Positions 62,368 through 62,852 of a DNA stretch of 64,000 nucleotides are shown here, one piece after another. The notes under the pieces were generated by a model that saw only the letters and a list, made by a program, of their open reading frames with translations, was not told where the DNA came from and ran no database searches. The stretch is from Escherichia coli. GTDB lineage: Bacteria > Pseudomonadota > Gammaproteobacteria > Enterobacterales > Enterobacteriaceae. Every line of letters starts with the position of its first letter. The first letter of the stretch is position 1. The stretch lies in assembly GCF_003334335.1 (NCBI RefSeq), contig NZ_QOWQ01000013.1, one strand, 5' to 3'. The position numbers were made by a program, and so were the translations under genes.

Positions 62368-62610
62368 TTGAACAGCAGAAAATTTGCGAGCATGATCGCA
62401 ATTATTTCACTGCCAGGGATATCAATAGCTTCCAGTAAATCGCTACAGCAGGCAATTGCCAATATAAAAATCTGGCACAAGGGTGAACAGCGCGCGCCGC
62501 ATAAGCCATTGTTATTGCTATACGTATTAGCGGGATACCTGAATGGACATCCGCGCCTTTTCGATTATTGTAGTGGAACAGTCTACGAGGATGCAGTTCG
62601 AAGTGAGTAA
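62368..62610 (+). CDS. Hypothetical small protein (possible gene fragment)
   Basis: 80-aa ORF in low-GC DNA; no recognisable motif. Confidence 0.25.
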   Translation: MNSRKFASMIAIISLPGISIASSKSLQQAIANIKIWHKGEQRAPHKPLLLLYVLAGYLNGHPRLFDYCSGTVYEDAVRSE

Positions 62611-62666
62611 GTAAAGGTTGCTGGAAACGATCAATGCCGCCATACAATGATTTTTGAGGATCAACA

Positions 62667-62852
62667 ATGAGTAATAAAAACTACGAAAGTCACCGCAAAG
62701 CGATTGTTAGTAAAGGTATACCACCCGCTCTATTAAATAGGCTCACCAATTCGGATGTTCAGGTGATCAATACCTTCTTAACACGAGTGAGCAAACTGGA
62801 ACTATCTCAACAAGAGAAAGACTGGATCATAAAAATCATCTCTATGGTTTAG
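62667..62852 (+). CDS. Hypothetical small protein
   Basis: 61-aa ORF MSNKNYESHRKAIVSKG... preceded by AGGA-like RBS; no recognisable motif. Confidence 0.25.
   Translation: MSNKNYESHRKAIVSKGIPPALLNRLTNSDVQVINTFLTRVSKLELSQQEKDWIIKIISMV

Follow-up and report, generated by a model that had tools for sequence, protein, structure and literature searches.

Among the SBD-HNH restriction endonucleases (SBD, sulfur-binding domain), EcoWI is the characterised E. coli enzyme: it cuts next to GpsAAC/GpsTTC, its cleavage has been shown to depend on phosphorothioate (PT) modification, and it blocks transformation by dnd+ plasmids (PMC7461809). In SprMcrA, PT sensing requires the integrity of the N-terminal SBD (PMC7461809). 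Two other kinds of known system invite comparison with the locus described here: the small phage-type proteins assigned to phrog_25874 and phrog_4641, and the decayed integrative elements that lie next to tRNA genes, as in the tandem accretion at leuX. We find pieces that recall all of these side by side in a short stretch of the E. coli chromosome, and we regard its two small open reading frames, ORF1 and ORF2, as unrelated items brought together by the movement of mobile elements at the leuX island hotspot, ORF1 being a dead chimera and ORF2 a complete phage-type gene (probability about 85%). RefSeq already lists the former as a pseudogene and the latter as a hypothetical protein; our study adds that ORF1 is a chimera, that ORF2 shows coding constraint and that the locus is linked to a decayed mobile element at leuX. 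The overall picture is one of ordinary genome decay, with mobile-element debris left at the leuX island hotspot.

The window, by which we mean the whole analysed stretch of 64,000 nucleotides, contains at 62368-62852 two plus-strand frames in tandem: ORF1 (62368..62610, 80 aa, TTG start) and ORF2 (62667..62852, 61 aa, ATG start), separated by a gap of 56 nt. The ORF list bears out the original prediction, made from the sequence alone, that frames of 80 and 61 aa lie in tandem on the plus strand and diverge from an HNH gene, and the low GC content claimed for this DNA is likewise real (41.6% for the region and 38.2% for ORF2, against 48.8% for the entire window). Since frames of at least 60 aa occur at a density of 3.4 per kb in the six frames of the window, ORF1 and ORF2 by themselves do not rise above chance, and their significance must therefore rest on homology. 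With nanC, nanM and nanS as flanking genes, the locus is on the E. coli chromosome, where the nanCMS operon for sialic acid ends. The divergently transcribed neighbour is an intact gene for an HNH endonuclease of 216 aa (61638..62288, minus strand; PGAP 'HNH endonuclease', WP_001037966.1), which provides the context of the two frames and is part of neither. Pfam HNH matches its product weakly at residues 141-197 (E 0.006), and residues 24-86 bear a weak resemblance to the head domain of ScoMcrA (5ZMM residues 29-92, E 9.6e-4). Intact in the window, the 216-aa gene is truncated in several other strains (L002, L011, L024). nanS is an open ORF of 335 codons in the window (60623-61630); the annotation of several strains that are otherwise near-identical at this locus lists it as a partial pseudogene (L001 2584-2928, L002 3141-3485, L006 1425-1928).

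A megablast search with 62289-63250 against 5,426 complete E. coli genomes separated these into two classes: genomes of the first class match the entire query, and those of the second match it only to about 62588 and possess a full-length gene at this place. The original prediction had proposed to look through other E. coli genomes for an intact homologue; this check succeeded and was decisive. In MS1679, in NCTC9088 and in a record labelled DH5alpha, the order nanC-nanM-nanS-HNH continues with an intact gene of 873 nt that encodes 290 aa (proteins WP_000168564.1, WP_000168568.1 and WP_000168572.1), and at least 80% of this gene is present in 1,707 of the 5,426 genomes. Residues 5-142 of the intact protein resemble the SBD of ScoMcrA (PDB 5ZMO, E 6e-8) and residues 170-249 the HNH domain of TagI, with Pfam HNH_2 covering residues 182-236. 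The intact enzyme would recognise phosphorothioate-modified DNA with its N-terminal SBD and cut with its C-terminal HNH domain. Its predicted mass of 33.2-33.3 kDa, set beside the 33.4 kDa published for EcoWI, does not decide whether it is that enzyme; for a paralogue of 292 aa the predicted mass is 33.5 kDa. This second paralogue is island-borne and adjoins a tyrosine integrase at leuX (L005 5444-7795, strain PS2Canimalfeces12); over the first 54 residues it shares 65% identity with the chromosomal enzyme, and it lies about 1 kb from the truncated chromosomal copy. Where the restriction gene is intact, it and the divergent 216-aa HNH gene together resemble a split enzyme of the ScoMcrA type. 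In the record labelled E. coli DH5alpha (NZ_CP026085.1, L024) the intact SBD-HNH gene is followed by McrB-family, McrC-family and HsdM genes, all of this beside nanCMS.

ORF1 contains the beginning of this restriction gene. The statement that neither frame has a recognisable motif is mistaken for ORF1, of which residues 25-68 match positions 2-45 of 284 in NCBIfam NF045808 ('phosphorothioated DNA-binding restriction endonuclease') with E 1.7e-16, the motif APHKPLLLL included; the score of 60.2 bits lies below the curated cutoff of 180 bits, and ORF1 does not qualify as a member of that family. When the intact protein is compared with 62000-64000 by tblastn, its residues 1-54 are recovered with 91% identity over 55 columns (E 2e-28). 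The window and the intact alleles share the nanCMS-HNH flank and are 98-99% identical in DNA sequence up to 62568, which places the stub in the orthologous position. When the window is aligned with two intact and two truncated alleles, the DNA sequences are nearly identical from the HNH start as far as ...TTCGATTAT / ...CTTTTCGATTAT, which ends at 62568, and diverge completely from there on.

Read from its TTG start, ORF1 begins with 19 codons (62368..62424, plus strand) of 5' leader or intergenic DNA that is open by chance: the sequence 62289-62424 is common to the window and the intact alleles, and the latter start at the equivalent of 62425. Codons 1-48 of the 290 restriction codons follow (62425..62568, plus strand; identified by NF045808, tblastn and DNA alignment), so that residues 20-67 of ORF1 are the counterparts of residues 1-48 in the SBD-HNH protein that other strains encode at the same locus; 47 of the 48 are identical, and the start codon, ATG>ATA, makes the difference. 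At 62425-62427 this native start codon is ATG in the intact and in most of the truncated alleles; the window shares ATA with two other strains (L001, L006). In comparison with the SBD-HNH family, ORF1 has kept the APHKPLLLL motif with the HK sulfur-contact pair, but it lacks about two thirds of the SBD and the entire HNH domain, its start codon is mutated, and its 13 C-terminal residues derive from an unrelated phage gene. A complete SBD comprises about 140-165 residues and a second sulfur-contact motif (YP in ScoMcrA), of which ORF1 holds residues 1-48 only; the PFW motif near residue 75 of the intact protein, which aligns with YPFW of ScoMcrA, is missing, and of the nuclease domain (HNH_2, residues 182-236 of the intact protein) tblastn finds no trace in 62000-64000. 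Because about two thirds of the SBD, the nuclease domain and the start codon have been lost, the product of ORF1 would be unable to restrict DNA. ORF1 is a non-functional chimeric pseudo-ORF, a dead stub, and PGAP labels it as a pseudogene ('incomplete; missing C-terminus') in every opened genome of the truncated type. Annotation as a pseudogene, as in RefSeq, is appropriate; more exactly, ORF1 is a chimera of two gene scraps.

Given that ORF1 truly is a gene fragment, and that ORF2 follows it in tandem on the same strand at a distance of 56 nt, both frames could be taken for pieces of one larger gene that was split by a frameshift or a stop codon. The original prediction had likewise considered fragments of a disrupted larger gene, and for ORF1, which holds the first 48 codons of the 290-aa gene, this part of it stands. 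ORF2, however, is not the remainder. With three intact SBD-HNH proteins as queries, tblastn against 62000-64000 detected nothing past residue 54, the rest being no better than E 0.09; as residues 1-54 are all that is recovered, and residues 55-290 are not encoded in any frame, the missing 242 codons are absent and not frameshifted into ORF2. Moreover, at the DNA level the similarity to the intact gene breaks off sharply at 62568, and the homologues of ORF2 are free-standing genes of 61-64 aa with a start of their own, in three of four cases with a Shine-Dalgarno sequence of their own, in four unrelated contexts. We consider the idea of a single split gene refuted and leave it practically no chance.

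After 62568 the chimera continues with part of a small phrog_4641-type phage gene, namely its 3' end (62569..62670, plus strand; blastn and BLASTP against L028), in frame with restriction codon 48. Its counterpart was found when the ORF2 family was used to scan IMG/VR: a viral contig of 39.8 kb, L028, on which gtrABC, a tailspike and an endolysin-like gene occur together with the C-terminal portion of an integrase gene. This gene content marks L028 as a P22-like temperate phage. In this phage the integrase gene is followed by a small gene (phrog_4641) and then directly by a homologue of ORF2; the small protein has 63-72 aa, and its N-terminus resembles a signal peptide. By blastn, 62582-62851 of the window aligns with 681-950 of L028 at 81.5% identity. 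The frame-matched translation of the window, VYEDAVRSE*VKVAGNDQCRHTMIFED, aligns with LYENAVRTEQVKVAASAQCRHTLTFED of the phage (18 of 27 residues identical, BLASTP E 2e-13): over the 27 residues encoded at 62581-62661, identity with the C-terminus of the phrog_4641-type protein is 67%, and frame and order relative to ORF2 are the same. In contrast to the phage gene, the 3' third alone is present; it contains one or two nonsense codons and is fused to the restriction stub.

The phage-derived part of ORF1 amounts to 13 in-frame codons and is ended by TAA at 62608-62610. The phage has CAA at this place in the DNA alignment, which indicates a CAA>TAA mutation. Other E. coli alleles possess an extra TGA at 62597-62599, three codons before the TAA, and the length of the tail varies by allele. 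From the homologies to the restriction gene and to the phage gene it follows that ORF1 is a chimera of leader, 48 restriction codons and 13 phage codons. The stub is decaying, with its ATA start codon and with stops in the tail that vary between alleles. We infer that a deletion or an illegitimate recombination would have cut the restriction gene after codon 48 and joined it in frame to the last approximately 30 codons of the small phage gene, and that the nonsense mutations would have followed.

The junction is a single, old event. The breakpoint 62568/62569 is identical in all 11 truncated alleles aligned by blastn (nine chromosomal, and two IS1-flanked plasmid copies), and these alleles are 94.5-99.9% identical to the window. 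The post-junction segment 62569-62870, which includes ORF2, is present in 971 of the 5,426 genomes at an identity of at least 95%, and it lies under a restriction-gene pseudogene annotation in 30 of 30 rows sampled across the ranking. The strain analysed here, like about a fifth of the complete E. coli genomes, has lost the chromosomal SBD-HNH enzyme, which restricts PT-modified DNA, and its uptake of DNA from dnd+ donors could be slightly changed.

An allele this common and this old (971 of 5,426 genomes, identity down to 94.5%) might be thought to persist on account of a functional mini-protein, for example an N-terminal SBD peptide that modulates PT sensing or interferes with SBD-HNH paralogues. 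The retained HK sulfur-contact dipeptide would suit such a role, as would the second, island-borne SBD-HNH paralogue of some strains. Against this, the native ATG is replaced by ATA both here and in two further strains, and the C-terminal tail of the putative peptide differs from allele to allele because the nonsense mutations differ. Furthermore, 48 of about 165 SBD residues are left, without the region that aligns with the YPFW motif of ScoMcrA, and SprMcrA needs an N-terminal SBD that is intact for PT sensing (PMC7461809). A function of the ORF1 product is therefore very improbable, and we maintain that ORF1 is dead.

ORF2 is of a different nature. That the two frames might be genuine small phage proteins, the other possibility originally offered, is right for ORF2, which has full-length homologues of 61-64 aa, and wrong for ORF1, which is a gene fragment. 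ORF2 (62667..62852, plus strand) is the complete 61-aa gene of WP_000066585.1, to which it is identical as annotated in E. coli chromosomes and plasmids, and it matches phrog_25874 over 1-61 of 61 positions (E 3.7e-47, 159 bits). There is thus no sequence difference from the described protein, whose family has neither a Pfam model nor an informative structural relative. The ATG is preceded, at a distance of 6 nt, by GAGGA, and three of four homologues have an equivalent Shine-Dalgarno site. ORF2 encodes a basic protein for which an all-helical structure with four helices is predicted (AF2 pLDDT 78).

Homologues were sought by an exhaustive HMMER search over 1.84 billion representative proteins, followed by a profile search that added more. 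They measure 61-64 aa and are 61-84% identical to ORF2: 64 aa and 67% in Salmonella enterica, 63 aa and 61% in a metagenome, 64 aa and 69-72% in Phytobacter/Metakosakonia, and 84% in the P22-like IMG/VR contig, where the homologue lies near the integrase gene. Common to them are the N-terminus MS(N)KNYESHR, a block that hardly varies, SD-QV-NTFLTRV-KLEL, and the start. A number of repeat-rich sequences (P0125, P0135, P0136, P0138) that had appeared as homologues were rejected, since repeated stretches had inflated their scores. A tblastn search of ORF2 against 50,697 deposited phage records returned no match. In six pairwise comparisons between genera (Nei-Gojobori), pS is 0.79-0.96, i.e. saturated, and pN 0.18-0.29. 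Saturated synonymous divergence together with low non-synonymous divergence indicates a translated gene under purifying selection, and this between-genera comparison leads us to conclude that the ORF2 family is under such selection. ORF2 is accordingly a bona fide conserved hypothetical gene: a complete, separate small gene of phage or mobile-element type, which would have arrived with phage-derived DNA.

The family members occur in prophage, integrative-element and hotspot contexts of Enterobacteriaceae, and other contexts are chromosomal or of unclear element type. In Salmonella the homologue precedes a primase-helicase gene by 100 nt, within a module that further contains a resolvase and toxin-antitoxin genes; on the metagenome contig it follows an Hha gene, and in Phytobacter it lies between the genes for a GntR regulator and a sulfatase. 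A conserved partner gene was considered and rejected, as the upstream neighbours are unrelated to each other (133 aa in Salmonella, 120 aa in Phytobacter, Hha in the metagenome, 63-72 aa in the phage). A Pfam search with the ORF2 family gave no match, structure searches with ORF2 retrieved generic helical bundles only, and no HTH or other DNA-binding fold or profile was recognisable. No publication on WP_000066585 or on the locus was retrieved by literature searches. We suggest with low confidence that ORF2 could be a small regulatory or accessory 'moron' protein, which may bind DNA or protein via helix 3 (SD-QV-NTFLTRV-KLEL).

Two other readings concern the present state of ORF2 in E. coli. 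On the one hand, it may be an inert leftover: a once real phage gene that is now neither expressed nor selected and awaits decay. ORF2 sits in a relic of about 500 bp whose neighbours are pseudogene scraps, PGAP often skips it (it is omitted in several genomes that carry an intact copy), the promoter-like match is weak, frameshifted variants exist at low frequency (e.g. P0121, P0127-P0131), and diversity within E. coli is too low for measuring selection. Yet ORF2 is intact in 11 of the 11 E. coli alleles examined, whereas the adjacent phage scrap of 100 nt has suffered one or two nonsense mutations; four of the five variable sites of ORF2 within E. coli fall on third codon positions, a sample too sparse to prove selection in the species; the Shine-Dalgarno sequence has been retained; and the intact promoter region of the restriction gene upstream could give read-through transcription. 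We consider an inert ORF2 possible but rather unlikely. On the other hand, ORF2 might be a phage 'moron', for instance with an anti-defence or regulatory role, that is selected in about 18% of E. coli genomes as the sole survivor of a decayed element and has been moved to plasmids by IS1 composite transposons. This we hold to be more doubtful still; if it were true, the fixed position of ORF2 beside a destroyed PT-dependent restriction gene would be a lead. ORF2 belongs to one of many families of uncharacterised small phage or island proteins, and very little rides on the finding.

Searches for further features around the two frames were negative in the following respects: the minus-strand ORFs overlapping the region have no NCBIfam or PHROG matches, Rfam yields no RNA match in 62200-63400, ARAGORN reports no tRNA, complete ones included, in 62000-64000, and PADLOC matches neither ORF1 nor ORF2. 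The promoter-like match at the locus is weak, and such matches are not more frequent than in shuffled sequence. Just past the ORF2 stop, a weak terminator-like hairpin followed by GTTTTGTGTG (62863..62880, plus strand) was picked up by a consensus scan, which is not functional evidence.

Downstream of ORF2, at a distance of 80-240 bp, lie a segment that resembles an integrase attachment arm and a remnant of the tRNA gene leuX. The former (62934..63053, no strand assigned) resembles the spacer that separates leuX from an island integrase gene in strain PS2C (L005 7864-7985): a local alignment joins 62934-63119 of the window with L005 7864-8049, and blastn gives 84% identity between 62950-63043 and L005 7890-7985. 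It contains three GTTGAnnTnnnTTGA direct repeats (family D2), which may be integrase arm-type sites. The latter, the 3' end of the tRNA-Leu gene leuX (about 63044/63054..63091, minus strand, approximately 23 nt), was recognised by alignment to the complete leuX of L005 and is interrupted by a tandem triplication of the 8-mer GTGCGAAG (repeat family D1); it looks like an att repeat that bounds the next genomic island. With this remnant about 200 bp downstream, the stub and ORF2 are to be regarded as mobile-element debris at the leuX island hotspot, and they lie at its inner edge. With its 23-nt leuX repeat, its integrase-arm-like segment and the CP4-type island beyond them, the relic resembles other decayed integrative elements that adjoin tRNA genes. 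In contrast to these, it has no integrase gene, and its left border is a deletion junction in a core gene instead of an att repeat. Phage- or island-derived DNA may formerly have lain between the restriction gene and leuX, and codons 49-290 of the restriction gene would have been lost, along with most of this DNA, in a later deletion.

A single leuX-integrating phage was considered as the source of both ORF2 and the attachment arm. L028 proved to contain no leuX-like sequence, and the integrase that it encodes has no relation to that of the leuX island, so that the piece with ORF2 may have a different origin from the attachment-arm piece.

Past the leuX remnant, the window continues with a CP4-type island that has partial HTH and DUF4942 genes, and related strains carry a CbtA-family toxin module there. 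The DNA that follows the relic varies by strain and includes fosA7.5, IS elements, an integrase with the second SBD-HNH paralogue, and HTH genes. The stub and ORF2 have also left the chromosome: about 27 plasmid records carry both, one of them labelled Klebsiella pneumoniae. In the two plasmids that were opened, pPK8568-122kb (L007 4630-5196) and NZ_LT883139.1 (L008 4624-5213), the equivalent of window 62290-62879 lies between two copies of IS1, and the plasmid copy is therefore an IS1-captured passenger from the chromosome. In GF75 and 23-AB02114 the fosfomycin resistance gene fosA7.5 stands directly after the relic (L009, L010 2112-2534), so that in some lineages the hotspot carries a resistance gene.
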